A stretch of DNA of 64,000 bases from Schmidtea nova (taxonomy: Eukaryota). The notes under the pieces are model-generated. The model saw only the letters and a list, made by a program, of their open reading frames with translations. It searched no databases and had not been told where the DNA came from. A program made the translations under genes and the position numbers. Of this stretch, positions 28,031 through 54,254 are shown piece after piece. Each line of letters starts with the position of its first letter. Position 1 is the first letter of the stretch. The stretch spans positions 306,714,001-306,778,000 of the forward strand of contig CM097883.1 of the NCBI GenBank assembly GCA_044892505.1, read 5' to 3'.

Positions 28031-28520
28031 TGCTGGGTTCATGGACGGGTTGGTAAAAATTCAAATGACGGCTAGGGATCTCCCTTCCATGATCATGCAT
28101 AAATAGTCGTAAGTTACACTCGAGCGCCCTTGATTATTTCCCTTGATAACCAAGTTGGTGATGCGCAGGGTGATTAAACAATGAGGGGCAGGTGAGCACT
28201 ATTGCTAGGACTACTCCCCCTTTTTGTTTACGGGTTCACGCGGCCGTAGAAGGACTTACGCAATTATAGTTCTATTGTGTGTGTGAGGTTATGTATTTAC
28301 CATAAAAACAAAAAAAACAAACAAGCAAAACGAAAACTACGAATTTGATAATATTTAAGTCTTTATCGCTACTCCTTTCGTTGGGTGACGGGTAATTTAC
28401 AGTTAATGGTATGAATTATGTAATCGAAGGAAAAATACTTAGGGATTATCAACAACAAAAAAAAAACAAAGACGAGCTAAAATTTAATTAAGTCCACAAT
28501 CTGACATTGCATTCTATCTG

Positions 28521-29156
28521 TCATAGGAATTCCTTGAATATTCCTTCAGGTGGGAACATCTCTGCTAACCACTCGGCTTCCGACATTTCTGCCATCGTGG
28601 TTACTTGTGTCTGCAATTGCTGAGAAAACAGCTTCCTTTGGCGACGGCGCTTGGAGCCGATTCGTTTTCGCTTATTCGGTTTTCCGGCGGGAGTTGGTGC
28701 CGTGGTGGTTTCCACCCGACTCTGCGCTGTTGTTGCCTCGAGTCCATCGGTGTCTGTACTGATTGAGCAGGCCACTTTTTGTTCTCCTACCCAATTCTGG
28801 TAAGTAATGGGTCGGATTTGTGTTTTCAATTCGGACTCGATAAATGAAGTCGTCACCGAATGAAGACATCGGCGCAACTCAATTTTTGTTGCTTCCCATT
28901 CGGTGCGATAATCGTCAGCTGTCCTTTGAGCCCTTTCTGTCCGACTCATTTGCTCCTTCATACGGGCTGGTGCGAACCAGCTGGTCCGTAAATGCTGAAT
29001 CTGAGCTTCTGCCTTGGCTCGTAAGGCTTTCTCTTGGTTTAGCTCCTTCTCCAATGCTCGGCGGATTCTCCACGCCTTGTCCAATTCTCGCTGTTGGCTA
29101 GTTTCCGTCATACTAAATAACAAACCCAATTTATAATGCATCAAATATGTTACCAA
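28521..29156 (-). CDS. LTR-encoded ORF B (coiled coil + basic NLS-like KPNKRKRIGSKRRRQRK); likely start MTETSQ after an acceptor-like ttatttag
   Basis: Intact ORF in both LTRs (also 55126-55761, one T/I difference); GC-richer than its surroundings. Confidence 0.65.
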   Translation of the reverse strand: MVTYLMHYKLGLLFSMTETSQQRELDKAWRIRRALEKELNQEKALRAKAEAQIQHLRTSWFAPARMKEQMSRTERAQRTADDYRTEWEATKIELRRCLHSVTTSFIESELKTQIRPITYQNWVGEQKVACSISTDTDGLEATTAQSRVETTTAPTPAGKPNKRKRIGSKRRRQRKLFSQQLQTQVTTMAEMSEAEWLAEMFPPEGIFKEFL

Positions 29157-29295
29157 GAATTAATATTATCCGTCGAGTGTAAAAATCATATGATTAAATA
29201 AATAGAAATAAATTTAACTAAAACAAACAAAAACACGGATCAACACCATTTAATTTATTGAAATCGTTTAGTTTATAAAAATGTGAATATAATGT

Positions 29296-29796
29296 TTAGT
29301 GGAAAACACTTCGCTTGAGGCCGTGAACGGGAGTAATATGCAACCCGTGATTGACTGGATTTCTTCGGATGTGAGCCATCGAACAGTTTAGTTTGGGGCG
29401 TCCGTGGCACGTTTTCGGTAGGTGATTCGGAATCAACCCGAATTTAAGCAACTTGAGCGGTGAGACATATCCCCAATGGATCACTATCGTTGGATTTCCT
29501 TCGCTGTCTGACACCACTATGATGAACAGAGCTGTCGTCTCCCGGTCTCTTTCGTCCTGAATTTCCCATCCGGGGCCTCCTCGATATACGAGGGTATCCA
29601 ATCCACCGGTCCAAATTGAGAATGGACATTTCTTTCCTAGTTCCCGTCGCCATTTATACATCAACGCATTTAGCGTTCTTAGAAGTTCCGGTGGGAGCGA
29701 CTTCAATTTTTTCTGTTGCGTCCGGATTAGAGGATTTTCGACCCGTGCCACATGACGTTGAGTTGTTAGAAATTCATCCAGTATCGTTGCCTTCAT
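29296..29796 (-). CDS. LTR-encoded ORF A (166 aa, unknown)
   Basis: Intact and identical in both LTRs. The ATG directly follows tttttttccag, a strong 3' splice-site consensus. Confidence 0.6.
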   Translation of the reverse strand: MKATILDEFLTTQRHVARVENPLIRTQQKKLKSLPPELLRTLNALMYKWRRELGKKCPFSIWTGGLDTLVYRGGPGWEIQDERDRETTALFIIVVSDSEGNPTIVIHWGYVSPLKLLKFGLIPNHLPKTCHGRPKLNCSMAHIRRNPVNHGLHITPVHGLKRSVFH

Positions 29797-31303
29797 CTGG
29801 AAAAAAATAATAATGCTAATAAATTTTATTGTGACGAACCCGTAAATTTTGGTGAGACCTGATAAAAAATGCTCGGCTCGTTGATCAATGACAAAGAAAA
29901 TGTGAAAAAGAGGAATAAAAAAATATTTTCCAAACTATTCAATTAACACCGTCGCTATGTACAGCGATCGGAATATTAAAAATTTACCTATTATTACCTG
30001 CGCTATGTACAGCGATCAGGTTACGATTTTATTTATTTAATCAGTAGTGTCGATCCGAATATATCGTTATTTATGTCTAAATTAAACTGTAGTTGGAACG
30101 TCGAAATCGTCTCGGTGTGTCCGGACGTGATTTCGTTCAGCTATGTTGATTCACAAAAATTTGCGTGTATATGAAAAAATCGATCTAGTCGACCTGATAA
30201 TTGATGTTATAGTTTGTTTTCGCCCGTCTGATCGAATGTTAATGTTAACCACTGTCTACAAATCTTACTCGTGTCCTTGTCCCTGCACAACTTTACCGTA
30301 CCGTGAAACTTCCGATAAAATTAAATTAAATAAAGAATACCAATAAAAACTCTGCTCACCATCTTGTGGAACGGTGAAATCCCACATTTACGGCTTGCTC
30401 CCTCGCAGCGTAAGCTACTGAGGAAGTATATTTATTAGATCATAAAATAATGGCATAAGAAAAATAGAGTAATAGTAATAAATTATATTAAATGAAAATA
30501 AAACAAATGGGAATCATGAAACATATCATAAAAATTAATGCAAAATACAATACAACAAAAATTTACTGTTTAAATCCACGATGCAGTGTTCTCCAAAAAT
30601 TTATACAGTATTTATCGTATCAAAGTTGACTATGATAGGTCAGTTCGGTAACTAAGTTGTTAGGTGTGTGTTTTTTTTTATGATTTTTGGATCGGTATTT
30701 ATACTGATCCAGTTGGTCAGATTGACCAATCAGGATCAGGCCGTCCATCAAAGTAATTTTGTTATTTTATTTTAATATAAACCATTTTAAATTTCCGGTT
30801 CAGATTTCTCGCTGGGTGGTCTCGATTTTTTCAAGTAATTAACCAATTAATTGTACTTTTATTTGATTTTATTTGTAATTTTCTTATTTCAGACCCCCAT
30901 ACTGCTCGTTCCCGTGTCAATTTGATTTTCTTCCTTTGCTGGAAATTTAGTAATTATTACTTATTATTTTATTTTGATTTTTAATTTAGGTTTTTTGAAT
31001 GTTTTTTGTGGTTATTATTTGTATTTATTGTTTAAATTAGTACAATATTTTTGTCTTTTTAGACCAATTGGTGGGCCCAACATCACTCGGGGACCCCTAA
31101 AATTGCGTCCCGCAATTAATTATACATATCTACTTATAACATCATACCTAAAAAGTTTTACAGATATACACATAAACACAAAGAAAATCACTTAAGGTGA
31201 TAGAATTTATATACATCATAAGATTTGTCATAGGATAGTTGAATATTATCAGATTATTGTCACAGGATAGTCAAAGGTTCATCAGAAATGTTCACAAAGT
31301 CTA

Positions 31304-31861
31304 TTAGATTCTCTGGCTCGCATTGGGTTGGGTTTGAGTTCTCTCATTGGTTGTAGCTAATTCGTAGTGGGTCTGAATTCGATCTAGATGGTTTCTCATA
31401 CGTCTTTGGGTTCGGTTGTCTCGCCTTGATGTTTGGTTGACGATGGTTTGTTTCTGTTTGAGGATTTTTATCCGGTAGGAGGCAATCAGGATTGTGATTG
31501 CGATGATAGTTACGCTGATTGAGAGGATTATGATGATTGCTATGATCCATTTCTCTTGATATTCTATTTCAGCTTGGGCTAGGCTTTTTATGGGCTCTCT
31601 ACCTTCTTTCAGGGTTTTTCGGGTTTCTTCTAGTTTCAGTTGTTGGTTATCGAAGATTTGTTGGATTTGATGATCTTGATTGTGGGGGTATTTCTGTCGG
31701 AATTCGTTGATTTCTCTAATTACTTCTTCGATTAGTCTGTCTACTTTCTGGTAGATTTTGTCGGGTAGCACTCGTAATTGGGTTTCAGTTAGTTGTAAAT
31801 CTTCTCTCTGTAGGGTAATGGTTATTAATCCTAGGAGTATTGGTATTGCGAGCTTTCTCAT
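31304..31861 (-). CDS. Accessory type-I membrane protein (185 aa)
   Basis: Hydrophobic N-terminus MRKLAIPILLGLITITLQ, helical ectodomain, TM WIIAIIIILSISVTIIAITILIASY and a basic tail. Confidence 0.75.
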   Translation of the reverse strand: MRKLAIPILLGLITITLQREDLQLTETQLRVLPDKIYQKVDRLIEEVIREINEFRQKYPHNQDHQIQQIFDNQQLKLEETRKTLKEGREPIKSLAQAEIEYQEKWIIAIIIILSISVTIIAITILIASYRIKILKQKQTIVNQTSRRDNRTQRRMRNHLDRIQTHYELATTNERTQTQPNASQRI

Positions 31862-31940
31862 TTTCTATCTTTACATAGGAGTCAATACAGCTTGACGCTT
31901 TTTATTTTACATCATCTATTTACAATTGGTTTCCGCTCAT

Positions 31941-32459
31941 TTACACGAGGGTTTCGTTAGGTTCGTGAAAACCTTCGTCTTGAGGTTCCACCTGATTTAT
32001 GGGGAGTGGCATCCATATTACCGTACTCCTCCACATTTCCACTTCCTCTCGGTACGTGTGGGATATCTGGATCTCTTCATCTAATAAGTATTCCAGATAG
32101 TTCGCCTGCTCTGTTAGGGTTTCTATTTGTTTTTCTAGTTCTGCTAATTTTTTCTCTCTCTCTTCTTTCTCTATCATTTCGGTCACTGCTGCTGTGATAC
32201 TTGTTTCCTTTGTGGGTACTGGTTTTTTTGTTAGCTTCTTTCTCAGTTCTTCGTTTTCTTTTGTCAAATTTGTTATGTTCTCTTCATAACTCTGCCTCGT
32301 TTCTTCCAGTCTTTCTTTAGTTCTTTTTAATTCTATTTTCTTCTGGGTAATCACTCCTTGATATCCATTTATGTCTCTTTTCATGTTTTCTTCCTTGTGA
32401 TTCCACATTCCGGTCAGCATACCTTTTAATTGTTCTTGATTGGCTAAATCTTCTCCCAT
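31941..32459 (-). CDS. Accessory coiled-coil protein (172 aa)
   Basis: E/K-rich heptad pattern; same strand and A-rich codon usage as the element. Confidence 0.7.
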   Translation of the reverse strand: MGEDLANQEQLKGMLTGMWNHKEENMKRDINGYQGVITQKKIELKRTKERLEETRQSYEENITNLTKENEELRKKLTKKPVPTKETSITAAVTEMIEKEEREKKLAELEKQIETLTEQANYLEYLLDEEIQISHTYREEVEMWRSTVIWMPLPINQVEPQDEGFHEPNETLV

Positions 32460-32462
32460 TCT

Positions 32463-33002
32463 TTACACTTGGTGAGTTAATTTTTTAATTTTCTTGGCTT
32501 GTTCCCTGATGAATTGTTGTCTTTTCTTACTCCATACTTTATTTGACGCTTCTTGACTGATCTTTTTCCCTAATTCTTCTTTTAATTCATCGATCTCTTT
32601 AAACAGTTTCCAATCATCGCTGTACGCTGTTCGTTCTATTATCTCCCTTGCTTCCTTGTAAGAGTCTTTTGCCTCTTTTTTCCAATATCTTGCTTGTTCT
32701 GTGATTGACTGAATCTTATGGTCTGTTTTTATCTGTTGTCTATCCCTATCCTCTCGTCGCTCTTTCATCATCCCTTTGTAGTATTCGTTTTGTTGTCTTA
32801 GCAGTTTGTAGACTTCTTCTATTTTTTCTCGACTTCTTTGATTCGATTTCTCGGCTTCTCTTAGTGCTTGGGTTTGTCTTTCTAATTCCTCCTGTTTTCG
32901 ATAATAGGCGTGAATCCATATCCCAATCCGCTCCATGTGATTTCTGATCATTTCGTCTTGATGTACGGTTACTTCTTGTAAGGTTACCTCTATATTTCCC
33001 AT
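32463..33002 (-). CDS. Accessory coiled-coil protein (179 aa)
   Basis: E/K/R-rich helical ORF ending 3 nt before the next ORF begins. Confidence 0.7.
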   Translation of the reverse strand: MGNIEVTLQEVTVHQDEMIRNHMERIGIWIHAYYRKQEELERQTQALREAEKSNQRSREKIEEVYKLLRQQNEYYKGMMKERREDRDRQQIKTDHKIQSITEQARYWKKEAKDSYKEAREIIERTAYSDDWKLFKEIDELKEELGKKISQEASNKVWSKKRQQFIREQAKKIKKLTHQV

Positions 33003-33113
33003 TTCTATAATTACAGATAAAAGAATATTTAATCAGTTTTTATTTTTATTGTTTTTGATTATTTGTTATTTCATATTGTTTTATACAGTTTATTTACATG
33101 GTTACTTCCTTCA

Positions 33114-34490
33114 TTACGCCAACCATCCTTTTCTATCTGTTTTCTCATGCCTCTCCATCTCTATGTATAGCGTGTCTGCATATAGTCGCTCCCATAGGTT
33201 TTCTTTCCTTATAAACATTGGTTCTCCTGCTGCTAGTCCGCATTCCGTTGTTGGTTTTTCACTTGTACTCGTATGTTTGTCTGTTTCAAAGAACTTTTCT
33301 ACTGGTTTTCCTATACTTTTGATTCTTATAATGACTCCTACTTTCAAGGGCCATTCTATTAGGTCATCGTATTCTCCTTTACATAACGAGAAGAATATTG
33401 ATACGTGTGTTCCTTGTCCTCTTCCGTCTCCATTTGGGTAGACCTTCAATCTTATTTTAACCCCATTTTTCCATAAATAAAATGGTGGGCTTATTACTGC
33501 TGTTTTCGTCATATTTCTGGCTTCTGCTAGTTTGTCTCTGAAATCTGTTACTTTCCATAGGTAAGGTGCGATTGGTAAGTCCCTTCTTTCGTCAATTTCT
33601 CGTATTAGTTGATTATATTGTATTTTCATTCCTTTTCCTAATTCTTCTATGGCTATTATTTTCTTTTCCATTCTTTCGCGAGTTAGTTCAAACTGCTCTC
33701 TTGTTTCTAGTAGTAAACTCATCATTATCTTATGTGATTCTACTTCTTTTTCTAATTTCTGGATTGTCTGTTCTGTTTCTTTTGTCGTTTCGTTTGTCAT
33801 TTCCACATGCGTTAGTGCTGCTTCTTCCAAGTGTTGTTTCATTGTTTTTCGCGTCCGCTTTTCCTTGCATCCATGCTTGTTATATGGACATTCTCTTGGC
33901 CTTTCGGTACATATTTTCCAATGTTCATGTAACTTTATTTCTTCTGTTATTTCGCAATTGTTTGGACATTTGCTTATATATTGTCTGCATACTTTCTCCT
34001 CTGTTATATTTAAGTGTTCTTCTTCGATTTTTCTCCTTGTTTCTCGAGTTTCACAATACTCGCATGCGATTTCTTCTTCTTTACATTCTTCCTTGTGTTG
34101 TTCTCTCTTCTTTAGAGTTATTGTCTGTTGGCATTTCTCGCATTCGGCTCTCTTTTCCTCGCATTTTTCCATATGGTTTTCCAGATTACTTATTTGTCCT
34201 TGCCATGTACAAGGTGTATTTACGCACTCCGTTGTGGTGCTCATAATTTCTCTTTGGGTTGCTTTGTCCATTCTAGTTTCATCCAACACTATTCTTCCTT
34301 CCTTACATTCTGGGCATGTTGTTATTCCTGTTGCATCTAATTCTTGTATACATTTTGTACATATTCTACATCCACATATCGTTTGTCTGGGTTCTCGCAA
34401 TAAATTATTACATTTTCCGCATGTGAGCCTCTTGCTCCATTTTCTGTTTTCTAATCTCAAGATTTCGATTACCCGTTCATCTCGGTCCAT
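33114..34490 (-). CDS. TRAF-family protein (RING, TRAF zinc fingers, coiled coil, MATH/TRAF-C), intronless, element-encoded
   Basis: RING CGKC...CGCRICTKC...CPEC (Cys in place of the usual His); zinc fingers CxN..C...H...C; MATH motifs YLWKVTDF, SPPFY and VYPNGDGRGQGTHVSIFFSLCKGEYDDLIEWP. Confidence 0.93.
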   Translation of the reverse strand: MDRDERVIEILRLENRKWSKRLTCGKCNNLLREPRQTICGCRICTKCIQELDATGITTCPECKEGRIVLDETRMDKATQREIMSTTTECVNTPCTWQGQISNLENHMEKCEEKRAECEKCQQTITLKKREQHKEECKEEEIACEYCETRETRRKIEEEHLNITEEKVCRQYISKCPNNCEITEEIKLHEHWKICTERPRECPYNKHGCKEKRTRKTMKQHLEEAALTHVEMTNETTKETEQTIQKLEKEVESHKIMMSLLLETREQFELTRERMEKKIIAIEELGKGMKIQYNQLIREIDERRDLPIAPYLWKVTDFRDKLAEARNMTKTAVISPPFYLWKNGVKIRLKVYPNGDGRGQGTHVSIFFSLCKGEYDDLIEWPLKVGVIIRIKSIGKPVEKFFETDKHTSTSEKPTTECGLAAGEPMFIRKENLWERLYADTLYIEMERHEKTDRKGWLA

Positions 34491-34581
34491 TTTCTACAAT
34501 AATATATACATTCGACCTGTCATTTATTTTTGGTTTTCTTGTTTTTATTTTTACATATTTACAGTTTTTCGCTTTATTTAT

Positions 34582-34938
34582 CTATGGCTCATTCGTTGAA
34601 TCTGGTTCCGCTTCGTTGTTTAATCTATTTATTACCCAACTCATCCATCCTTCTTCGGATCCTTCTCTTTCTCCTCGTGTTAAATGGTTTATTTCTATTG
34701 CTTGTCTTTGATTGGTGTTGCTTATCGTTTGATTTTCCCTGGTGAGTTCAGTTATCGCTCTTTGTTGTTCCTCTATTCTGTGTAATTGTTCGAAACAATT
34801 GTTATAACTTTCTGATAGTAACATTTGTTTTTCCGCTAGTTGGTTTTGTAATGAGTTGACTGTTCTTACTAGTAAATCACATTGTGCTTTCCATCTCATA
34901 GCCATAGTTATTTCAGTGGTTTCGTCTTGTTCGGTCAT
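34582..34938 (-). CDS. Accessory coiled-coil protein (118 aa)
   Basis: Heptad pattern; ATG in a TAG-AAA-ATG context. Confidence 0.65.
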   Translation of the reverse strand: MTEQDETTEITMAMRWKAQCDLLVRTVNSLQNQLAEKQMLLSESYNNCFEQLHRIEEQQRAITELTRENQTISNTNQRQAIEINHLTRGEREGSEEGWMSWVINRLNNEAEPDSTNEP

Positions 34939-35063
34939 TTTCTAAATTATATACATCATTTACTTTGCTTTTCTATCTTTTTACAATGTTTATAATATCG
35001 ATACCCATACTATTACGGTAATGCTTTGTTATTTACACTATTATTTACAGTCATAATCCGCCC

Positions 35064-35882
35064 CTATACCATCATTATCGTCTTTTCCTCGTATCGTTCT
35101 TCATCTTCTATTTGTTTCCAGAATTCTTTACCTTTCGTTTTTCTTTGGAATTTTTGCTGTATCTCTTCTGGTATTTCTATTCTTTGCTTCATAATTTTAA
35201 TATCTGGCCATTGTATGTCTGTCGCTTTGTTTCTCCTTCTGTATCTCCAATATATTATCATGCTTGTCGTCATTATCCCATATGTTATTAATATTCCTAT
35301 ACTGATTAGTCCTATTACTGTTTTTCCCCGGTTTGTTGCTTTGATTTTCTTCTGATTCGCTTTTATCTCATTTTGGGTTTGAGCCTCTGGCTTCTTCTCT
35401 TTCTGTATTTGACTCTTGACTTTGTTCATTACTTCTTGGGTAGACCAATGGCGGTTTAGTAGTTGTTTGACGTTATTTTCTTTTGTTCGGTTTTTCATGT
35501 TTCCTGGTTCGATCTGTTGTTGTAGTTTCTCTGAGATCTGATATAATCCGCATTCTGGTTTTTCCGAACCTTTTCGGGTGAAGGTACATATCGCGTATGT
35601 CCTATTTACTTCCATTTTCTTTAATTCGACTTTTTCTTTATTCCCTGTTTCTTTACAGTGGGTTAGGTTACCTTCTTCTCCTTCTGGGTTATGTTTTGTC
35701 CAACATATTCCTTTCACTGTCTGATCAAGTCCTGTTAATGTCAGAGTTCTTTCTGTTTTGGTTAATTCTTTTTCATCGAATTTCAGAATTTCTCCTTTTT
35801 GGAATGTCTTGCACTTTTCTATTCCGGGTTGATCTTCTTGGATTCCTTTCTCCCATATACATATATTTCCTTCTCCGTCCAT
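35064..35882 (-). CDS. True C-terminus of the polyprotein (FN3-like domains, TM, cytoplasmic tail), put out of frame by the duplication/frameshift
   Basis: Repeats the last in-frame 90 aa of ORF 35773-41838, then continues VNRTYAICTF...CGLY and TM TVIGLISIGILITYGIMTTSMIIYW (35247-35321). Confidence 0.85.
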   Translation of the reverse strand: MDGEGNICIWEKGIQEDQPGIEKCKTFQKGEILKFDEKELTKTERTLTLTGLDQTVKGICWTKHNPEGEEGNLTHCKETGNKEKVELKKMEVNRTYAICTFTRKGSEKPECGLYQISEKLQQQIEPGNMKNRTKENNVKQLLNRHWSTQEVMNKVKSQIQKEKKPEAQTQNEIKANQKKIKATNRGKTVIGLISIGILITYGIMTTSMIIYWRYRRRNKATDIQWPDIKIMKQRIEIPEEIQQKFQRKTKGKEFWKQIEDEERYEEKTIMMV

Positions 35883-36289
35883 TTGTATTTCTTGTATTTC
35901 GGTTTCCTTGTTTGTTTGTGGTTCGTCGCTTGTCTGAACTTGGTATGTCCTCTTCCATTTTCTTTAATTCGACTTTTTCTTTATTCCCTGTTTCTTTACA
36001 GTGGGTTAGGTTACCTTCTTCTCCTTCTGGGTTATGTTTTGTCCAACATATTCCTTTCACTGTCTGATCAAGTCCTGTTAATGTCAGAGTTCTTTCTGTT
36101 TTGGTTAATTCTTTTTCATCGAATTTCAGAATTTCTCCTTTTTGGAATGTCTTGCACTTTTCTATTCCGGGTTGATCTTCTTGGATTACTTTCTCCCATA
36201 TACATATATTTCCTTCTCCGTCCATTTGTATTTCTTGTATTTCGGTTTCCTTGTTTGTTTGTGGTTCGTCGCTTGTCTGAACTTGGTAT
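35596..36289. repeat. 348-bp tandem duplication with a 5-bp deletion (attta) near the junction, causing a frameshift
   Basis: tatgtcct-attta-cttccattttc at 35596 versus tatgtcct-cttccattttc at 35944; the copies are otherwise nearly identical. Confidence 0.9.
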
Positions 36290-39200
36290 TCTTTTTGTTC
36301 GTTGTACCATCCCCAGCATATTTTGTTGCTACTCCGGCCTTTTCTCCTTATTGTCATGGCCATTTGTTCTATTGTTATTCCTTTATTGATACGTTTGGAC
36401 ATTGCTAGTATTAACGCTATGCATACGACATCTTGTTGGGGTGATGCTCCTTCTCTCGTGTTAGTTATGCTTCTCTCCCCTTCTCCTGGTTTATCCGTTG
36501 TGTTTCTTATCTGAGTTGCTGGTTGCTCTATTGTGTTTTTGATTTCTTTCTTTGTTGGTTTTACTCTATACCATTCAAGTCTAGGCGTTTCATATTTCTG
36601 GCATACGACTGTCTTAGGTAGCCCCGACTTCTTTTCCTTTTCTATTATGCATATCCGATGCATGGTTCCTCCATCCATTTCTTCTATTCGTACGATATCC
36701 TGGTCGGATTTTCTGATTATGCATTTTAGTGGGTTATTTTCTCCAATTGGTTCATCTTCTCTATACCAACATATTTTCTCGACTTCCTGGACATTTATTA
36801 CTTTTATCCCTGTCTGTGGGTTTATTGCTTCTTCCCTATTAATTAATGTCAATATTATTGTTAGACCCAACCATTTTGAACTCTGCGGTAGGCTTCTGGT
36901 CCGCCTTTCATATTTTTCCTCTTCGCCTTTAATCTCTTTTATTTCCTTGTCTTTGTTGTTTATTCCTAGTTTTCCGCTTTTCGCTTCTTTCTTATTTGGT
37001 TCTTCTCGTGCTCTTTCTTCTAGTATTTCTACTCCATGGCTTGTATTATCTATATTTATCCATTGGGTTACCGATTTCTTTGGGTTTATCTTGCGTATCC
37101 ATATAGCTGATAACGCGATTATTACTGGTATGATTGCTGTTAATATTCCTAAGCCGATTAGTTCTTTAATTTCTTTATTCTCGTCTGTTTGTATAGGTTC
37201 GCTTTGGTTGAACATTATTCCGTATTGTCCCTTTAGTTTTCTCATTAATTGTTCCCGTTCTTCTTGTTTTCTTTTGACTTCTTTGATAACTTCTTCGGGT
37301 GTCCATTTTGCTTGAGGGTCGATTATTATTTTTTCTGCGTCCATTTGTTCATTCGTTTGGCTTAGTTCCCTGAATTCGAGTTTCCTTGTTATTCCTTTTG
37401 ATGTCGCGTTTACTGGTGTATAGTAGGTTTCGCATCTTTCTTGTTGGTTTCCTAGTGCGTCCATTATTTCTATTGCGCATACTTCATACTCGCTATTAAA
37501 TTGTAGTTTTTCGATCTTGATTTCTTTATTTGTTTTTCTGCATTCTCTTGATTGTCTTCTTATATGTTTCTGTACTATTATCCAACATATTTCTAATGTT
37601 TTATTCTCTATTTTCCATAATGTTAGAGTTGCTGATGTTTTTCTCTCGGGTTTCGTCGTAACTTCTTGGTTTGTTGGTTGTTTATTGTTTTTAAAGGTAG
37701 TGGTGTACTTCGGTTTTCCTTTGTTTCGTTGTTTCCTTCTGTTTTTCTGTGTTAACGTTTTAGTTCTTGTTCCGGATGAAGTGGTGTATATTCCGCATTC
37801 TAGGTCGTTTATCGTTATCTGATCATTTTTCTTTACCAAACATATTTCGTAAGTTTGTTTCCTTTCTAAACCTTTTATTTGTATCGTCGTTGCTCCTGTG
37901 CTTGTTCGACATTGTGGTGTCTTTCTTTCATTCGTCTCTTTTTCGTACTTCCTCCAGCATACTCCTTTCACATTTGGTTCTATTTCTTTTATTTCTAATG
38001 TTATGTTTAGTTTCTGCTTGATTTGTTTATTTCTCTTTCTCGTTCTCCTTCTGAACTTTATTACTTCTCCAGGTTGGAATGTTTTACATTTTGTGGTACC
38101 TTTCTTGTTTGTCTCTTTTTCTAGTAGGCATAGTTTGTACGTCTTATCTGCTTTTACTTCGGATATTTTAATTACTTTATTCGTTGTTGGTTTTCGACTT
38201 TTCCTTATTTCGTTTACGCCGATTTCCTCGTTGTTTCTCGCCCAACATTTTATGTTAGTATTCTGTGTATCTTCTACTTCTGTTATTGTCATAGTTTCAA
38301 TTTCTATTCCTTCCTCTAATCGTTTTATCATTATTAGTATGAGTGCTAAACATAATACTTCCATTTGGTAAGACACTCTTTCGGTTTCGTTTGTGGCGAC
38401 TCTTGCTTCAGGCCTCTCTATTGTAATTCGTATAGTTGGTGTTGTTTGCTTATCTATTGCCTGGGGTTTGTTGTTTTCTGTTCCCTGTGTCTCTGTCCTT
38501 CCACATTTTCCGATGATGTAATCTCCTTTGGGTGACTGTTGTATTGTCATGGCTGCTTTAGGTGTTTGGTATTTTGCACATGCGATTGTGTTGTGTGATC
38601 TTGGATGCTTTTGTTTTCTAACGGTGCATATTTTGTACCAGGTATTTAGATCTAGGTCGTTGATCTCTATGATTTCTTGCTCGTGTTTTGAGATTCTGCA
38701 ATCCATCGGTCTATTTTGTTCCGTGATTTTGTCCTTTTTTGACCAACATACTCGTTCGATTCCTTTTGCGTTTTTTATTTGTATTATTGCCCTTTCTTCA
38801 CATGTCATTCCTTGACTTGGATTAATTAACGTTAAAATCACTGTTAATAATAGTAATTCTGGTTTGAAGAATGGTTTTATGGTTGATTTATAACCTGTTC
38901 TTTGGGTGTCATTTTTATCTCCTTGGTCGTTTTTTCCTGGTTCTCCATCTTCATCTCTTTGTTTTTCGTCTTCATTTTTCTTTTCTTCCTTGTCTCGTTT
39001 CTTGTCTTTTCTCTCGTTTTCTTCTTTATCGGGTGGTTCGTGATCGTTTGAATTTTCTGAGTTGTTACCGTCGTCACTATCTGTATTGTCATCTTCCCCT
39101 GGCTCGTCGAAAATGTCGTCCTCGACATTGATTTCTTCTATTAGTTTCGCATACGCTAATGTCGTTAGATTACTTGCCTCAAACTCTTGTGTTTCTACCT

Positions 39201-41871
39201 GTTCTGGTATTACTTTGTTAGTGGATTTATATTCTAAGATTTCCTTTTTGGCCTTGATCCAATTGTTGATGTATGTCTTCATCAACTCTTTCCATTTGCC
39301 TGTGTACTTTTCTTCCTTCGGGCTGGTTGTGATCCTTAAATCCTTTCTTTCCATAAACATCTTCAATATCTCTGGCCATTTATACGTTATTAAGGCACTT
39401 CTTATGCACCAATTTTGGTTATGTTCTGTAAACTCATTAATCCTGAATGCTGGTTCGTTAGTATTCGGATTTATCCACGTAAGTATTGCTTCTGTTAGTT
39501 CGACATTATGCATCATTGTTAGTACACTGGTTTTCCTGACCGTATCAGTTAGGTAATCTATTTCTTCCTGATTTGAGATTGTTTTAATGAAGTTGACCAT
39601 TTCCCAATTATGTGTTAGTAATGCTACATCCAGAATTGAATTTTCTTTATCTGTCTTTCCGGTAAGTCCTGCACCTGCTTTGTATAGTTCTTCCAACACT
39701 TTTGTTTTCGTTTTGGCCCTTGCTGCAAATATCATGAGTGTATCTCCTTTCTCGTCTACCATATTCATGTTGCTTCCGCAGTTTAGCATTATTCGTGCAA
39801 TTTCCATTACTCTTCTATCTTTGCCATTTCGTAAAGCTCTATGTATGGGCATTATTCCGTCCTTTGGTAGTAAAAATGTTACTGGCATCTCCTTTTTTAT
39901 ATTCGTTATATCGTTACCATTGTATGTTCCTTTTGCGTATGCGTGTACTTTTTCAACTAAGGCACCGAGTATTTCTAATGCGTGTTGACAATTCTCGAAT
40001 TCTGGTAGCAACTCCTTTGCTTTTTCTTGTATCGCATCTAGTCTAGCTTGGTATGGTGCTTCTGCTTTGAAGAGTGGTGTGAGTTTCTTGTTACTTTCTC
40101 TTTCTTTTCTCTCCAAAACCTGTTTGCATTTTTCGGGGTGGTTTAGGGTTTTTACTAGTTCTTCATACTCATTTATTATCGTCTGGTATTTCTCGTTAAA
40201 ATTGTTTATGTCTTTGTATGTTATTAGTTTATCCAGCGGTTTCGCACACCATTTCCTAATCTTGTTGAATAAGGCTTCCTTCTCTTTATCAAATTTGTGT
40301 TCCTCTTCATTCTTTGTGATGTATATGTTTCCTCTGTCCAGTAAGGTTAGTAATGTCTTTGGATCGCAAATAAATTTCAAAAGGTATCTTAACAACGCGT
40401 TTTGTCCTTCGCTGTATACTTCGTTTATGTCTAAGACCCATGTATCCTCTTCTGGTCGTTTCCATTCGATTAACTTACGGATCGTATTACATTTGCCAAT
40501 TTTGATTGCCTCTTTGATAAGGTCTCCTTTTATTAATTCGTCTATTTCCCACGTGGAGTTTGCTATTATATATTCCAACATAAGTTGGTGAGAACTCCAT
40601 ATCGCGTGATTTAGCACTGTTTTATCTTCTCTATCTCGTTCTGTCCAACTGAAACGGGCTTTTATCAACAGATCTACCATTTCTTTATCTGCTTGGTAGA
40701 TGGCTGCTGTCATTAATGGAGTTTCCTGTTCACGATTCCCAACGTCTAGGTTTTGGTTTGTTTCTTTTGCGATTTTCAAGAATTCTTTTGCTCTTTCAAT
40801 GTTTTTACACTGAATCGCATTATGTAGGGCTGGTTGTCCTCCTACATCTTTTAATAAGAGTATTTCAGGGATTTTTATCAATAATTCAGAAATAATTGGT
40901 TCGGTTGGTAATCCTTGTGCGTAACGGCTAATTATGTGTCTAATGTCCCTTGATATGCCTGCTTCGTCTCTAACATGCCATCTTCCCATTATTTCTCTCG
41001 CCTTCAATAGGATTTCTTTATTTCTGATTTCTTTTTGCCTTATTTCTGTTTTGTCGTCTTCGCTGGTGTTTGCTCTGAGCATGTTTATCCTGGCTGTTTG
41101 TGATCTGGTTATTATTCGATTCTCTGGTGTTGTAGTTATCGTTTTAGGCACCTTCTTACATCTGCAGGTGTTTACATATATGGGTCGTATTAATGGTCGG
41201 TTTATTAGCTTAACTTTGGCATTATTGTCCTTTTTGTATATAATTTCATAAGGTCCTCTTCCAGGTCTTTGGAGTTTCTTAACCGTTCCTGGTATTATTT
41301 CGGGAGTTTCTATTATCACCCAGTCTCCTGGTTTTAGGTCGTTCGCTTTAACGTTTTTCTTCTGGTCGTGTAAGTCCTTATAACTTTCCTGATAAAATTT
41401 AATGTTGAGTTCTGCCGTTTTCCATATTTCCTGCATTCTTTCTTTGAATTTGGTTACGTAGTCGTCATCTTCCATATATTGCGATAATGGTGGCTGATAC
41501 TCTAAATCTATGGGCATGTTGCATTCTCTTCCATACATGAGTTGAAACGGGCTTAGTTTTGTTGCTGCATGTATCGACATTCGGTATGCCATTAAACATA
41601 ATTTTATGTATTCGTCCCAATCAGTTTGGTGTCTGCTGACATAGTTGGATAGCATTCTAATCAATGTACCATTGAATCTCTCTGTTTGTCCATTCGTTTG
41701 TGGGTGATATGGTGAAGTTCTCAATTTTGCTATTCTGAAATAGTTTGTCACCTCGTTCAATAACTCACTCATAAAATTAGTTCCTTGGTCTGTGAGTATT
41801 TGTTTTGGAGTTCCGTATCTGCAACATATTTCTTCCACTAGAATTTTTGCTACGGTTTTTGCTTTTTGGTC
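35773..41871 (-). CDS. pol: Polyprotein part 2: integrase core + GPY/F, ankyrin repeats (two clusters, ~40460-40850 and ~39300-39860), acidic linker, duplicated FN3-like membrane cassettes; same frame as part 1 after a TAA
   Basis: TDQG-35-E (GQTERFNG) and GPYEII. ANK-like PALHNAIQ, TPLMTAAIY, PIHRALRNG and DTLMIFAARA. Hydrophobic segments at 38809-38862, 38317-38358, 37099-37161, 36826-36873 and 36388-36429. Confidence 0.92.
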   Translation of the reverse strand, partial: DQKAKTVAKILVEEICCRYGTPKQILTDQGTNFMSELLNEVTNYFRIAKLRTSPYHPQTNGQTERFNGTLIRMLSNYVSRHQTDWDEYIKLCLMAYRMSIHAATKLSPFQLMYGRECNMPIDLEYQPPLSQYMEDDDYVTKFKERMQEIWKTAELNIKFYQESYKDLHDQKKNVKANDLKPGDWVIIETPEIIPGTVKKLQRPGRGPYEIIYKKDNNAKVKLINRPLIRPIYVNTCRCKKVPKTITTTPENRIITRSQTARINMLRANTSEDDKTEIRQKEIRNKEILLKAREIMGRWHVRDEAGISRDIRHIISRYAQGLPTEPIISELLIKIPEILLLKDVGGQPALHNAIQCKNIERAKEFLKIAKETNQNLDVGNREQETPLMTAAIYQADKEMVDLLIKARFSWTERDREDKTVLNHAIWSSHQLMLEYIIANSTWEIDELIKGDLIKEAIKIGKCNTIRKLIEWKRPEEDTWVLDINEVYSEGQNALLRYLLKFICDPKTLLTLLDRGNIYITKNEEEHKFDKEKEALFNKIRKWCAKPLDKLITYKDINNFNEKYQTIINEYEELVKTLNHPEKCKQVLERKERESNKKLTPLFKAEAPYQARLDAIQEKAKELLPEFENCQHALEILGALVEKVHAYAKGTYNGNDITNIKKEMPVTFLLPKDGIMPIHRALRNGKDRRVMEIARIMLNCGSNMNMVDEKGDTLMIFAARAKTKTKVLEELYKAGAGLTGKTDKENSILDVALLTHNWEMVNFIKTISNQEEIDYLTDTVRKTSVLTMMHNVELTEAILTWINPNTNEPAFRINEFTEHNQNWCIRSALITYKWPEILKMFMERKDLRITTSPKEEKYTGKWKELMKTYINNWIKAKKEILEYKSTNKVIPEQVETQEFEASNLTTLAYAKLIEEINVEDDIFDEPGEDDNTDSDDGNNSENSNDHEPPDKEENERKDKKRDKEEKKNEDEKQRDEDGEPGKNDQGDKNDTQRTGYKSTIKPFFKPELLLLTVILTLINPSQGMTCEERAIIQIKNAKGIERVCWSKKDKITEQNRPMDCRISKHEQEIIEINDLDLNTWYKICTVRKQKHPRSHNTIACAKYQTPKAAMTIQQSPKGDYIIGKCGRTETQGTENNKPQAIDKQTTPTIRITIERPEARVATNETERVSYQMEVLCLALILIMIKRLEEGIEIETMTITEVEDTQNTNIKCWARNNEEIGVNEIRKSRKPTTNKVIKISEVKADKTYKLCLLEKETNKKGTTKCKTFQPGEVIKFRRRTRKRNKQIKQKLNITLEIKEIEPNVKGVCWRKYEKETNERKTPQCRTSTGATTIQIKGLERKQTYEICLVKKNDQITINDLECGIYTTSSGTRTKTLTQKNRRKQRNKGKPKYTTTFKNNKQPTNQEVTTKPERKTSATLTLWKIENKTLEICWIIVQKHIRRQSRECRKTNKEIKIEKLQFNSEYEVCAIEIMDALGNQQERCETYYTPVNATSKGITRKLEFRELSQTNEQMDAEKIIIDPQAKWTPEEVIKEVKRKQEEREQLMRKLKGQYGIMFNQSEPIQTDENKEIKELIGLGILTAIIPVIIALSAIWIRKINPKKSVTQWINIDNTSHGVEILEERAREEPNKKEAKSGKLGINNKDKEIKEIKGEEEKYERRTRSLPQSSKWLGLTIILTLINREEAINPQTGIKVINVQEVEKICWYREDEPIGENNPLKCIIRKSDQDIVRIEEMDGGTMHRICIIEKEKKSGLPKTVVCQKYETPRLEWYRVKPTKKEIKNTIEQPATQIRNTTDKPGEGERSITNTREGASPQQDVVCIALILAMSKRINKGITIEQMAMTIRRKGRSSNKICWGWYNEQKEYQVQTSDEPQTNKETEIQEIQMDGEGNICIWEKVIQEDQPGIEKCKTFQKGEILKFDEKELTKTERTLTLTGLDQTVKGICWTKHNPEGEEGNLTHCKETGNKEKVELKKMEEDIPSSDKRRTTNKQGNRNTRNTNGRRRKYMYMGERNPRRSTRNRKVQDIPKRRNSEIR

Positions 41872-44800
41872 TTACATGGCAAATGCTTCCGGGAATTTCG
41901 TCAGGTAATCCGTTATTACCAGTATATAAATATTTCCGTTTAAACTTTCTGGTAATGGTCCTATTACGTCCATTGCTATAGTTGTCATTGGTTCTGCTGG
42001 TATTGGCATTGGTTGTAGTGGGTTTTTCCATTTCTTCCCACTATCCTTTCTAGTTGCGCAAGTTAGACAATTTTTAATCCATTCTTTTATATCTTCTTCC
42101 ATTGTTCGCCAATAATATTTCTGTCTCATCCGATTTATTGTCTTTTTCTCTGACATATGACCTCCTAATTTCCCATCGTGGTATTGGATCATTATCTCTT
42201 TCCTTCTGTTTTCCGGTAAACACATCAGCCTCTTTTCACCGTCTTGTATCAATAACCATCCTTTATTTATTATATATCGATGTTGATATTTTCCTATATG
42301 TTCCTTTAATTCTTTGTTATCTTTGAGTACCTCCATATTTCGAGATGTTAGGAACTCTATGATCTGTCCTAACTCTCTGTCTTCCTGTTGATCTTTCTTT
42401 AACTCACTAAAATCCAAATCTTCCGCTATTAACACACAAATTCGTTGTACATCAGGATCGGTTAGTTCTGGAAATGTCAGTCTTGACATACAATCTGCAT
42501 TCGCATTCGCTCTTCCTGTTTTAAATTTTATGTCTGGTGAGTACTCCTGTAGCTGCATTGCCCATCGCATTAATCTACTGGATGTTTCCTTATGCTGTCC
42601 TAACCATACAAGCGGTTGGTGATCTGTTGTTATGCAGATGATGTGTCCCCATAATAAATATTTAAAGTGTTTAATTGCTAGTATAATTGCTAATGCTTCT
42701 CGTTCTGTCACCGAGTAATTTTTTTCGTGCTTTTTGAATGTCCGGCTATAATATCCGATTACCCGTTCTTTTCCTTCGTCGTCGTATTGTCCTAATACTG
42801 CTCCTGCTGCATATCCGCTTGCATCTGTTGCAAGTAAAAATGGCTTCTTGAAGTCTGGGTGTACCAATATGGGTGCAGTTATCAGTTTATCTCTCAACTT
42901 TTCAAAGGCTGTTTGTTGTTCATCTCCCCATATGAATGATACATCTTTCTTTACCAGTTCCTGTATAGGCTTTGCGATTCCGGCGTAATCTTTTATAAAC
43001 TTTCTATAGTATCCACATAATCCGAGAAATTCTTGTATTTGGGTTATTGTTTTTGGTACTGGACATTCTTTTACTTTGTCGATATTTCTAGGATCCGGTT
43101 CTTTTCCTTTTGCTGACACTATGTGTCCTAAAAATGTTACTTTCTCTTTAGCCCAATCACATTTGGATGGCTTGAGTTTTAACTTCCATTGTCTAAGTCT
43201 AACGAATACATCTCGAATATCTTGTATGTGTTGTTCGAATGTACCAGAGTAAATTAATAAATCGTCTATGTAGACCATACACTGCTTTATTCCATGGGTG
43301 ACGAAATTCATGCATCTCTGAAATGATGCTGGTGCGTTTGTTAGTCCAAATGGCATCTTTCGAAATTGGTATAAGTCTCTACCGATGGTAAAGGCAGTTT
43401 TCTCTTTATCTTCTTCCTTCATTTTTATTTGCCAGTATCCGCTTTTCAGATCTAGTGATGTAAAATATGCTGCTCCCTGTAATGTTAGTAGCATTTCGTT
43501 GATGTCTGGTAATGGGTAAGTATCTCGTTTTGTCACTGTATTCAATCTTCGATAATCTATGCAGAATCTCTGTGTTCCGTCTTTCTTCTTTACCATTACT
43601 ACTGGAAATTGCCAGGGTGAACAACTTGGTTCGATCACTTCTGCATCCAACATTTTCTTCACTTCTGTTTCTGCTACTGCTTTCTGTGCTTCTGCTAATT
43701 TGTATGGTCTTAATGCAATTGGTGTTTCGTCGGTTAATGGTATCGTATGTAACGTGACATCACATGTTCCTAGATCCAAATCGGATGCTGCAAATATATC
43801 CTTATACTCCATCAAAAGTTTTTCTAACTGCTTCCTTTGATCTTCATTTAGTAGTTCACTATCAATATTCCACGTTGGTTCTTTATCTTTCTCTGCTCCT
43901 TCTATTGGTAGTTCGATATCCATCATTGGGGTTAGTTTGCCTAATCTTTCGTTTTCGTAGATTATTTTATCCTCCTCGTCGAAATTTACTACGTTTATTG
44001 GGATTTCTCCATCATCGTTTATGTTAACTAGTCCTCTTGCCATTGGCAACGCTTTTCTTTTCTCGAATCTCTTACTTGGTTCGAAAATCATATCCCCTTG
44101 GATTGTCGGATCTATTTTTACGTAACATATTTTCTCCTTTCTTGCGGGTATTATCATTTGCTTTGAACTTGTCACTTTGGCTTCTATTGCGCATATTTGT
44201 CCTGTGCGATCCTTTAGTCTCATTGTTCCGAGGTCGATTACAATCTCTTTAAATAGTGCTGGCATCAAATCTGTTCCGATAATGCAAGGTACGCTTAATG
44301 CTGGTATGACAGCTACGTACGTATCGATTTCCGTGTTTAAATGGCGTATTTTTACCCACCATCTTCCTGCTACTTCTACAACTTCTTTGCTACATGCAAT
44401 TACATGGACGTTTGTCCTTTCTATTTCTCGTCTTTGCTCTTGCGGTATCCATTTGATGTCGATGGCGGACATGTTTGCTCCCGTGTCTATCATTGCTTCG
44501 ATTTCCCTTCCGTTAATCTCTATTGTCGTGGTTAATACTGGACCTGTGTTTGATGACATTACTGCGATCGTGTGTGTATCCCCTTGTGGATCTACGCTTC
44601 TACATCTTCTCATTTTATAATCTTCTGGTATCATGGGGTATACATTTGTCATTGGCATCATTTGCATCGTGCCATTTTTTCCTCCTTGTAGTGGTTCTTG
44701 ATACATGGTTGGTGGAGGTGCGTAACATTTCCATGCGTCGGCTGGATTCTTTTCGATGTATTGTGGTGCTTGGTTCTTATACACTTGTCCTCCCTTATAG

Positions 44801-47800
44801 TCGTCATCGTCGTCATCGTCGTCACTTGAATCATTTTGGGTTTTATATCCTTTCATCCTCTCCCACAGTCCTTTTCTTTCTTTCTTGAGCTGTTGTCTTG
44901 CTTGTTCGTCATTCATTATCTTTTTAAATTTTCGTCCTACTTCTTCATCTGTTCTCTTCATTTTTGCTAATATCTTAAGGAGTCTTTTTATTCGGTGGAT
45001 ATCTTTTGAGTGACCGTGTAACACCATTGTTTTCGCAAGGAATGGTAAAAATCCTACTACCATTTTCCAATTCACTCTCTTTTCTCTCTTGTAGATATCG
45101 AAACACGCTAACATTTGCGTTATTATCACTCTGACGATTTGTATTATTAATATAACCCCCAGTATTCCCGCCATCATTTGTCCAAATATCAGGAATCTTC
45201 CCCACATTGCTTTCATCATATTTTCTGTGGCTTTCTTGAAATGTGCTGGTGACAACAACAGTTCATAATTCGGTCCTTCTCGATAATCCGTTCCTCCCGT
45301 TATTGTTACGATATTTGATAGTAATGCTTCTCTTCTTGCCGGGAATAATATATTCTGCCTTGCTGCTTCTAAATCCTTTGGACTATATATTCCGTTGTTT
45401 GAGACATCTACGTCGCTGAATTGCCTATCCTTTGACAATTGCATTAGCTCGAATTCTCTTGGTGCTATCACTTCGGATCTTCCTGGGAACATAACCCATT
45501 TACCATCTGGTTTCTGATAGAGCGGTCCGTACGCATTACTACAGTTAAATGGATTTGGTTCAAACCCTGGTGGATTGATGATTCTCGTCACTGGTTGAAC
45601 GTATCGTACTTTTCCTTTGTAATCGATTTCTAACTCATTTGTACAGGTTCCAGGTTTCAACTGCGTTGTTGCTGCTAGCGACGCGTGTGTCTTTTCACAA
45701 ATGTATACATACATTGCTTCTCCAACCACTCTTCCGAAATGTCCTTCTCTTAGTGGTAATAATGGCATCGCGCTATCTGGATTCGTAATCGCTACGGCCA
45801 ACTTTGTCTTTAATATTTCTCGATTCAGTATACAATCATTGTTTATCAGATCGTAGTACACTTTTTGTAATGAGGCTTGTCCTCTATGAAATAGGAAATC
45901 CATTTTATTATTCACATACAGGTGTAGTTTGATATCCATTGTGTCGATTTTGGGTTTCGCATTTGGCACTTCTTGTTTTGACACATATATTCCTGGGTAA
46001 TTCGTTTCGTATACCGTTGTACTACACTTAAGGGTTGCTTTCCCTTTTATGAATCTCATTCCCACATCCTGATTTGTGGTTATCAACACTGTTGGTGTGG
46101 CTCTCATCTCTATCCTTTTTTCTCTCTGATCTGGTTTCAGTTGTCTTTTATTCTCCAAAGCTTCCTTGAGATGCTTCGCTCTAGCTTTGTCGTCATCGTC
46201 TTCTTCCTGGAACGTTTTTCCTTGAATTTCGTCGAACTGTGCTCCTTGTAGCAGTTGTAATTGACATTCGTTCACCTTTGGTTTGTATACTAATGTTGAC
46301 ATTCCCGTTTGACACATGCTCCTGTCGATTTTACACATGGATAACGTTTTCATTTCCCCCGTTGTTGGTTCGAAGAATGCTTCGTAGCTTTTTAGTTCGA
46401 CTATATACGTATCCATCACCACTAAGTTGGTTGCGAGTGTTCCGAACATCGGGTAGGTTTCTCCTTGACAATATCCTTCTCCTCCCGTAATCCGTCCAGC
46501 TACATAGTACGTCTGTTGCATCATCATTCCTGGCTTTCCTTTTATCTTGATTTTATCTCTTGTTGTTACTTCTCCATGTTTAAACAGTGCTTCGCAGTCT
46601 TCTCCTTGTAACACGATTGGTTCTCTTTCCGTTCCTGGCATGACGATTGCTGAATAATGTCCTCTCCCGCAGTAGAATGCGAATCTCGTCTTCTGCACCT
46701 TACATTCATTTACCATTGTCTTTATGAGTTCTGCTTCTTGATACACGTGGTACCATTGTTCCTTTTTAATCTTTTGCAACTCTACTGGAGTTGCATCTTT
46801 GCATTGCTCCGTGCCTCTCAATGAATACTTTTCTCCTAACTTAATTTGGTCGCAATCAAACACTTCGAACGCTGTTGCGCTATCGGTGCTAATCATCCAT
46901 ATCAACATCATCATTATTATAGAACTCAAATTCATTGATGACTTCGCGTTTCTTGTTCCTGCTTGTTCTTTTCCTAACTCTTCCAATATTTTTTCGAATT
47001 TCTTTTTCATATTCTTGGCTTGTGTTTTCTTCTGGTTAGTTTTTATAAATGTTTCCCATCCGCCATTGTTAATGACGTAGGGTTCTATTTCTTTAGATAT
47101 AATCTTTGCGGTATTTTTTATGTGTCTTTCCAACGCAGTGGGTTTTGGTCGACCTCTACTCAGTGTTAGTAGGTTGTAGATATTGTACGCAATAGCTATT
47201 ACGTATTTGTTATCTGTTTCCGCTCCTTCTGTCAATTTCTTTATTAACGTAGTGGTTCCTTGCCAGTCTAAATGATTTGACTTCGTCTTTTCTTTTATGA
47301 ATTCCGGTAAGATGGGTGCAATTGCGCTGTGCAATGACTTCGCCTTTTCGCTTATCTCAGTTATGCGCCAGTATTTTTTCAATTCCGGATCAATTATTGC
47401 CAATATTTCCATTATTGTTTTTGATATCCATTCCTCACCTTGACATATTGGTGTTGTCTCTTTTTCTTTTATCTCCGCGATTTTATTTAATTTCTTTAAA
47501 CATACTTCCCATTGATCTTGTCTCTTTTCATCTTTATTTCTGATGACTACATTTGCCGGATCTGTCTTGGGTCTACCTCGAGGTCGTCTATCCATTCCTG
47601 TACCCGTTTCCACAAATCTTGTTGCTCGTCCGGTTTCTTCCGTAACATCTCTTGGTTCGTTAGCTCTTTCTTCCAACCATCTTTCCATTTCTTGTGTTAA
47701 TCGTACATTTTCGACATTCGCTCCTCTTGTTTCGTCTTCCGTCAAATCGTTTACTTCTTCTATTATTATCTCTTCTTCGACTTCTGTTTCTCCGGTGTTG

Positions 47801-52302: not shown

Positions 52303-52891
52303 CTGGATTACTTTTATATTATCAATTTTCTTGTCCTATCTATTATCGTTTTTCTGATTCTTCTTGTTGCTTGATTGATTTGATTGATTTGTATATCTAA
52401 AATACAAAGGTCCTCAACGATACCTTATTGTTATCGTCGCGCTTTTATTCCCTTTCTTTCGGGATTACTTATTACTGGGTTTTCATTATTTCCCATTCCC
52501 AGATTCCCCTTTATTTTTAGTCTATTTAAATTATCTATAGACTGGTCACAATTATCTATTTATGTCGTAATAATTATCTATGTTTTATCAAATCCATTAC
52601 TTTTCCCACAGTTTCCCAATTTATTGGTCGCTCGAGCGCTCTAATTCCCTGAGTCTTTCTGACTCGTTTATCATTTCTATTCATTATTCTCTGATAGCGA
52701 TCGTTTTACTCATTCTGCCGGTTGCTCCGGTCAGCCCAAATTTTTACTATTCTCCTTGCATGCTTTATTTAAGGTTGCATAATCAGCTTTACTCGCATTT
52801 CTTAACTACTAGTGCGCACTATTCTAAATCTCGTCGACGATTACACTATGGGTCTATATTACTATTTATCCGGATATCTCTATAATCCACT

Positions 52892-54251: not shown

Positions 54252-54254
54252 TTT

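Follow-up and report, generated by a model that had tools for sequence, protein, structure and literature searches.

Does the end of a giant retrotransposon's Pol polyprotein encode a second surface glycoprotein, and if so, for what purpose? This question is raised by a 64,000-nucleotide stretch of the Schmidtea nova genome (assembly GCA_044892505.1, contig CM097883.1, positions 306,714,001 to 306,778,000 of the forward strand; hereafter the window, whose numbering is used throughout), which carries a 29.6-kb Ty3/gypsy element on its minus strand (28031..57587). Behind the integrase of this element, a first-pass annotation made from the sequence alone had described two ancient copies of a cysteine-rich membrane-protein cassette resembling fibronectin type III (FN3) domains. 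It had proposed that several surface proteins are released from this cassette by internal signal peptides, as partners of the fusogen, decoy receptors or superinfection-exclusion factors. Our analysis indicates that the cassette is a real and apparently undescribed feature. We consider it quite probable that the post-integrase slot encodes a second type I glycoprotein that is freed by signal peptidase, and plausible, at a little under an even chance, that this protein serves as an adhesin or attachment protein aiding fusogen-driven spread.

The sequence motifs by which the two modules had been recognized are found in place, all on the minus strand, and the modules are copies of one cassette. 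Module 1 aligns with the first part of module 2 at 31% identity over 297 columns (E 2e-42), and the Smith-Waterman score of 439 between the modules compares with at most 81 among 200 shuffles; for the parts comprising helix, transmembrane segment (TM) and tail, the score is 76 against at most 60 in 1000 shuffles. Module 1 opens with a signal-like peptide (38809..38874) composed of a basic n-region, an 11-residue h-region and an S-Q-G c-region. It continues with domain A1 (38551..38808), a mid-module hydrophobic segment termed H2 (38326..38358), domains B1 (38050..38304), C1 (37759..38016) and D1 (37402..37647), a conserved stalk motif (WTPEEV..., 37273..37305) and TM helix 1 (37102..37158; Kyte-Doolittle value (KD) 2.56, with basic residues on its C-terminal side). 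In module 2, an internal signal-like peptide (36826..36891) precedes domain A2 (36574..36828), H2 (36397..36429), domains B2 (36121..36378) and C2 (35526..35762, in the frame 35064-35963), the stalk motif (WSTQEV..., 35415..35447), TM helix 2 (35253..35318; KD 1.95, followed by a basic cluster) and a cytosolic tail (35064..35252) ending in valine before the stop codon. This terminus we take to be of the PDZ-ligand or endoplasmic reticulum (ER)-export type.

The pattern proposed for the individual domains holds in its core, four positions (C, W, C and C) being invariant in all seven, but in full it is looser than described: the second cysteine is missing from both B domains, and a strict regular expression matched five of the seven. 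The dipeptide CW occurs seven times within 960 cassette residues, whereas 20,000 shuffled versions average 0.47 occurrences and never exceed 4. Among the 21 possible domain pairs, those in like positions match best (A1-A2, z 26.9; B1-B2, 21.1; C1-C2, 13.8), the other 18 pairs ranging from 2.5 to 10.6, and therefore duplication of the domains came before duplication of the module.

Structure models were obtained for domains C1 and D1, using seven-row alignments; the other five domains, A1 included, are assigned as FN3-like by homology. Each model is a six-stranded sandwich (mean pLDDT 77.9 for C1 and 79.7 for D1). When these were compared with 48,161 chains, the best match of C1 was fibronectin (Z 7.6, rmsd 2.4, 72 residues aligned) and that of D1 was the FNIII1 domain of sDscam (Z 8.3, rmsd 2.3, 72 residues aligned). 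The matches listed for the two models are FN3-containing chains, mostly aligned from target residue ~10-15, that is, from strand B. Strand A is missing from both six-stranded models, and residues 1-12 of an extended D1 model, likewise built from a seven-row alignment, have pLDDT values below 50. Both modelled domains thus display FN3-type topology, so the anticipated beta-sandwich is borne out for C1 and D1, and the models suggest that the cassette domains are FN3-like but probably lack strand A.

Sequence comparisons place these domains at a considerable distance from known families. None of the seven passes a Pfam fn3-clan cut-off, domain A1 giving weak hints of Interfer-bind and Fn3_ELFN below threshold, and Atlas ranked FN3 clusters first (0.90) with a low recognition score. 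A search with module 1 returned none of 5554 candidates at E 0.01 (restricted to 363-1155 aa) and no PDB match, and a domain profile compared with 1.84 billion representatives gave 35 matches, none at E 1e-10 and all from summed weak repeats; module 1 therefore appears to have no close homologue. Thirty-four of these 35 proteins have a Pfam fn3-type match, mostly within bacterial-type architectures, and the profile alignment places the cassette CW on the motif that bacterial FN3-like repeats carry in strand C. Module 1 also scored 22.3 bits (versus 6.7) when compared with a profile built from these 35 matches, a circular result that was not counted.

How many proteins might such a cassette yield? 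Signals and TMs were judged by hydropathy and charge. Within the cassette, a 19-residue hydropathy of at least 1.6 is reached by TM1 and TM2 only, in agreement with one true TM helix per module, and each module is preceded by a signal-like segment with a basic n-region, the net charge before both h-regions being +3. A positive charge also precedes the signal h-region in 14 of 15 relatives of the element. By these measures signal 1 and both TMs fit a type I protein. Cytosol and lumen would alternate consistently over the signal and TM of the fusogen (Env), signal 1, TM1, signal 2 and TM2, and basic residues lie on the expected sides of these segments except at TM2, which has them on both. The H2 segments are like the module signals in sequence and in distance to the next CW. 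They are 11-12 residues long, fall below a 19-residue hydropathy of 1.6, lack a basic n-region and are preceded by net charges of -1 and 0. As a TM, H2 was rejected: it is too short, and a crossing there would break the alternation of cytosol and lumen. Of the proposal that several proteins are released by internal signals, the part concerning the two module signals therefore stands, while release at mid-module H2 is doubtful. Because H2 lacks the charge of a signal and would disturb the alternation, two proteins are likelier than four, and the cassette probably yields two rather than several. H2, which is probably not membrane-spanning, may be a remnant of a unit of signal plus domain that was duplicated and now enters the lumen.

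The principal new result comes from related elements. The best 120 of 352 hits in a reverse transcriptase (RT) search form the comparison set, and an RT tree was built from 28 hits and the window (the 20 best unnamed or contig-derived candidates, three further unnamed sequences and five named outgroups). The window RT falls in a clade with 16 polyprotein relatives (support 100/99). We scored the post-integrase slot for a signal-like 11-mer after the integrase followed by a TM at least 80 residues later, an arrangement present in 13 of the 16 clade relatives versus two of 96 other Pols. The controls consist of the 104 other hits, 96 of which have an integrase match, and many of them are chimeric gene models from one arachnid; among those with tails of at least 250 aa, two of 42 pass. 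These two (P0149 and P0152) are chromodomain-bearing, with a signal-TM protein in frame after the integrase and no upstream fusogen domain, and in P0149 the slot holds a rhabdovirus-G fusion domain. Thus, the signal-ectodomain-TM arrangement in the post-integrase slot is conserved across the clade. The relatives keep a single open frame from Pol into the tail, and because Gag-Env-Pol elements outside the clade (P0143 and P0150) lack a tail, it is a clade trait. A search with the Env region added two new proteins and no more.

The type of ectodomain varies between subclades. Ten clade tails share one repeat family (8.5-22.7 bits when each subclade is left out, versus at most 5.3 for shuffled sequences), in an alignment from which one spurious row, the P0111 tail, was removed; the P0106 tail was not recovered in the leave-out test and is assigned to no type. 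Two clade tails have a short Cys-rich ectodomain, and in two other members of the clade the integrase is followed by a signal, an immunoglobulin (Ig) domain (E 4e-8 and 1.5e-5) and a hydrophobic C-terminal end. That the shared repeat is itself FN3 is only a lead: Atlas gave 0.86 for P0141, an 18-column hhalign match was influenced by the picking of domains, and a bacterial FN3 profile reached at most 3.5 bits on the relatives' tails. At the other end of the protein, a C-terminal valine, as in module 2, occurs in 10 of the 16 clade relatives versus five of the 104 others, and an S/T-x-V/I/L terminus in seven of 16 versus none of 104. A YxxPhi motif is present in the tails of 8 of 13 relatives. 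As a separate observation, extra aspartic-protease-like domains occur after Env, integrase or both in P0102, P0106, P0110, P0112, P0118, P0122, P0125, P0129 and P0141.

The element in the window displays the hallmarks of Ty3/gypsy elements: long terminal repeats (LTRs), a target-site duplication and the order protease (PR), RT, RNase H (RH) and integrase (IN). The 5′ LTR (54632..57587), followed by a primer-binding site that we take to be tRNA-Pro-like, and the 3′ LTR (28031..31082) have TG...CA ends, taken by hand from the printed sequence, and are flanked by a 4-bp duplication, TTAC; from these features and the 99.6% and 99.8% identity of the LTR blocks, the insertion is recent. By Pfam, a single reading phase holds Gag zinc knuckles, fusogen, protease, RT, RNase H, integrase and ankyrin repeats. 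Its first frame (41872..52335; first ATG 51870) encodes a Gag with CCHC knuckles, ~1280 residues (47002-50835) in which no Pfam match was found at E 0.01, a class III fusogen with signal and TM, PR, RT, RH and the N-terminal part of integrase. The fusogen is of the Monjiviricetes type (PF24664, E 5e-70) and sits between Gag and PR. The remainder of integrase, ankyrin repeats and an acidic linker follow in the frame of module 1 (38875..41871), so that ~750 residues of ankyrin repeats and linker separate integrase from the cassette. From the ATG at 51870 to position 35773 there are ~5370 codons with one internal stop, an in-frame TAA (41872-41874) that cuts integrase at a position open in the relatives. 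Further on, a 343-bp tandem duplication (35609..36289, one internal mismatch) splits module 2 across two frames. The intervening residues, the stop and the duplication were all absent from the first-pass annotation; either lesion could have arisen by mutation or reflect a fault in the assembly. We considered programmed readthrough at 41872 and rejected it, the codon being TAA and the relatives open there.

In an unbroken element, the cassette would be translated as the C-terminal end of a single polyprotein. Gag would remain cytosolic, a signal would direct the fusogen into the ER, and the fusogen TM would bring the PR-RT-IN-ankyrin portion back to the cytosol. A second internal signal would then move the FN3-like domains into the lumen, where signal peptidase is predicted to cut them from Pol, leaving them anchored by their TM with a short cytosolic tail. 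Since this unit is doubled in the window (TM1, tail, signal 2, module 2), two type I proteins of four and three domains would result, and the terminal valine may bring the last of these to places of budding or cell contact, by way of ER export or PDZ scaffolds. Presumably made 1:1 with Gag and Env, the conjectured adhesin would bind a host surface molecule so that the fusogen can act. Adhesion is favored because the protein is encoded within a structural polyprotein, the slot is kept while the ectodomain changes, and the tail is like that of HTLV-1 Env. The immune-type TRAF and RING cargo of this element lies in separate open reading frames (ORFs), in contrast to the FN3-like protein. In HTLV-1, the Env tail combines a YXXphi motif with a PDZ motif, and fusion where cells touch is promoted when Dlg binds (PMC3185783). 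A complex prediction for the Env ectodomain with domains B-D scored 0.00; alignments were not used and the partner fold is uncertain, so this is evidence neither way. More tentatively, and as a possibility that we would not call likely, the whole clade of invertebrate elements may have a two-component envelope. The class III fusogen encoded before Pol would be its conserved part, and a receptor-binding glycoprotein released from the Pol end, with an ectodomain that is FN3-like without strand A, Ig or Cys-rich, would be its exchangeable part, directed to cell junctions by a PDZ ligand; here the slot is doubled. Such an arrangement would be as in paramyxo- and herpesviruses.

Several observations weigh against the proposal of a second glycoprotein acting in adhesion. 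This copy, owing to the stop in integrase, is unable to make the cassette as a Pol extension. Signal 2 has a glutamate at -3, a residue that the -3/-1 rule marks as unfavorable for cleavage. The FN3 assignment draws on middling Z-scores, and Foldseek found no match for the C1 and D1 models at E 0.001, nor was there one in BFVD. The window branch of the RT tree is long (0.94). Within the clade, P0102 lacks a tail, only a hydrophobic C-terminal end is present in P0126 and P0131, and because the relatives are kin, 13 of 16 represents fewer than 13 independent events. Homology between the window domains and the relatives' repeat was not found (hhalign 13.8 versus a shuffled maximum of 12.6; all HMM domain E-values above 0.3), so that calling these the same protein rests on position and architecture. 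Finally, ankyrin repeats, which are probably regulatory, also reside in the polyprotein, and the stoichiometry argument is weaker for it.

The main and close rival to an adhesin retains the same processing and topology but makes the protein an immune or signaling modulator, a decoy or mimic of a cytokine-type receptor acting alongside the TRAF, RING and ankyrin domains that the element also encodes. We regard this as possible without thinking it likely. FN3-like repeats, a TM and a tyrosine-containing tail constitute a receptor layout, which the YxxPhi motifs of the relatives also recall, and the fold matches that tie include FN3 chains of interferon receptors; domain A1 gives the sub-threshold hints noted above. 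Variable copy number and fast change likewise resemble adenovirus E3 and cytomegalovirus RL11. The fold matches, however, are tied over all FN3 types and say nothing about function. The protein is moreover anchored and part of a structural polyprotein, whereas many viral decoys are secreted and come from genes of their own, and a clade-wide slot filled by unrelated ectodomains suits a generic need better than a single ligand.

A different route to the products, which appears unlikely, would be through spliced or internally started RNAs, in which every hydrophobic segment, H2 included, serves as an N-terminal signal and several proteins result. The likeness of H2 to the signals would be explained in this way, a methionine lies just before H2 of module 1, and an acceptor-like AG lies at 38858 (9 of 15 pyrimidines), a score of at least 10 being reached by just three of 329 candidate sites; acceptor-like starts also occur at the downstream ORFs described below. 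The pyrimidines at 38858, however, are Phe codons, and neither module signal nor H2 of module 2 is closely preceded by a methionine, the nearest one upstream of the module 1 signal being ~140 residues away. Among the relatives, a methionine within 16 residues upstream of the h-region occurs in only five of 15, and one open frame from Pol to tail is kept.

Very unlikely, in our estimation, is a role in superinfection exclusion, by occupying or down-modulating the receptor that the element's own fusogen uses: the predicted surface location would permit it and receptor interference is common in retroviruses, but such interference is normally exerted by Env itself, and nothing links these domains to the Env receptor. 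Most improbable of all is that the cassette is a functionless piece of a captured host gene, or a pattern that arose by chance in A-rich DNA. The 48-49% A content, the lack of a close homologue and the two lesions might be cited in favor, but the slot, shuffle and Val-terminus tests largely refute this reading. At 31% identity the modules still share the Cys/Trp framework, signals and TMs, the folds are confident, the slot is clade-wide and the cassette region resembles the rest of the element in base composition.

Among known systems, the element resembles Burro, the giant planarian Ty3/gypsy element, which according to the available text of a review is ~30 kb long with a huge single frame, a mononegavirus-like fusogen between Gag and PR, and ankyrin, RING and MATH/TRAF cargo, all of which are found here (PMC6431247). 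At 29.6 kb and ~5370 codons, with Env inside the frame, the window element is comparable to Burro with its ~5000-aa frame. The same text names no fibronectin, immunoglobulin or signal peptide, and its sole use of "transmembrane" concerns Terminons (PMC6431247). The BIR, BCL2-like, SUMO-like and dUTPase domains of Burro were not found here by Pfam, several of them being known in the literature through HHpred only, and no named Burro protein is among the best 120 of 352 RT hits. The GAG-ENV-POL errantiviruses with an HSV/gB-type Env share gene order and fusogen class and, in the portion of the source available, occur in Nematoda, Bryozoa and Platyhelminthes (PMC13524379). Its main text, to the same extent, is without fibronectin, ankyrin, TRAF or attachment, the post-integrase domain discussed being a chromodomain (PMC13524379). 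A member of this errantivirus group would be expected to have intact ORFs and multiple copies; the copy in the window has the integrase stop.

As to fold, the cassette domains share with FN3 (PF00041, as in Dscam, LAR and interferon receptors) a B-C-C'-E-F-G sandwich, a tyrosine-corner-like L...Y and, as in bacterial FN3-like repeats, CW in strand C; they differ in modelling without strand A, in their extra Cys pairs and in lying below all Pfam cut-offs. Separate attachment and fusion proteins are characteristic of paramyxo- and herpesviruses, and polyproteins cut by signal peptidase of flavi-, alpha- and bunyaviruses. The cassette would work in a like manner, internal signals freeing type I glycoproteins and a second glycoprotein standing beside the fusogen, but no relation in sequence or fold was found, and its carrier is an element that replicates by reverse transcription, in which it follows integrase. 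Adenovirus E3 CR1 and cytomegalovirus RL11 likewise combine duplicated beta-sandwich domains of variable copy number, a TM and a motif-bearing tail; their folds are of the Ig type, each is encoded by a gene of its own in a DNA virus, and BFVD gave no match at E 0.001. Extra membrane proteins in Ty3/gypsy elements, as far as the available texts describe them, include rotifer Vesta ORF3 (PMC5408684) and Drosophila sORF2 (PMC11952523), which are short separate ORFs in place of Env and are not FN3-like, additional to a fusogen or fused to Pol.

A literature search found no FN3- or Ig-type glycoprotein at the Pol C-terminus of such elements in the portions of sources covered; the original Burro description and Repbase entries may mention such tails. 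Env-bearing retrotransposons have so far been treated as one-surface-protein elements. A conserved second glycoprotein behind integrase would be a concrete candidate for governing target-cell choice or the handling of host immunity, making the receptor question testable, and the long "Pol" tails of these elements would prove to be mis-annotated. An FN3-like fold without strand A and with extra cysteines would, if it holds, be of separate structural interest.

The remaining features of the element include two further cargo genes recognized by Pfam, a TRAF-like ORF with RING, zf-TRAF, coiled coil and MATH (33114..34493, minus strand) and a RING-finger ORF situated after the 5′ LTR and before gag (53748-54284, minus strand). 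A small ORF (31304..31864, minus strand) with a signal-like start, a helical-looking body and a TM is a third candidate membrane protein; BLAST found no relation between it and the modules. Five close-packed downstream ORFs (minus-strand ATGs at 34938, 34490, 33002, 32459 and 31861) are each preceded by a TGTA...AG-A(1-3)-ATG-like motif, which suggests that a polycistronic tail is processed by cis- or trans-splicing. The leader region contains tandem arrays of 32-, 29- and 42-bp units (52892-53266 and 54253-54363). Each LTR has two open frames of ~212 codons (28521-29159 and 29296-29934, minus strand, and again at 55126-56542) with no credible Pfam match. Outside the element, an unrelated gypsy-type element is represented by two decayed copies in opposite orientations, at 3-4100 (minus strand) and 13770-15290 (plus strand). 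Two similar-looking coiled-coil ORFs on the plus strand (16677-17204 and 63300-63875), without a Pfam match, resemble the LTR frame 28521-29159 by eye and are possibly LTRs of related elements.

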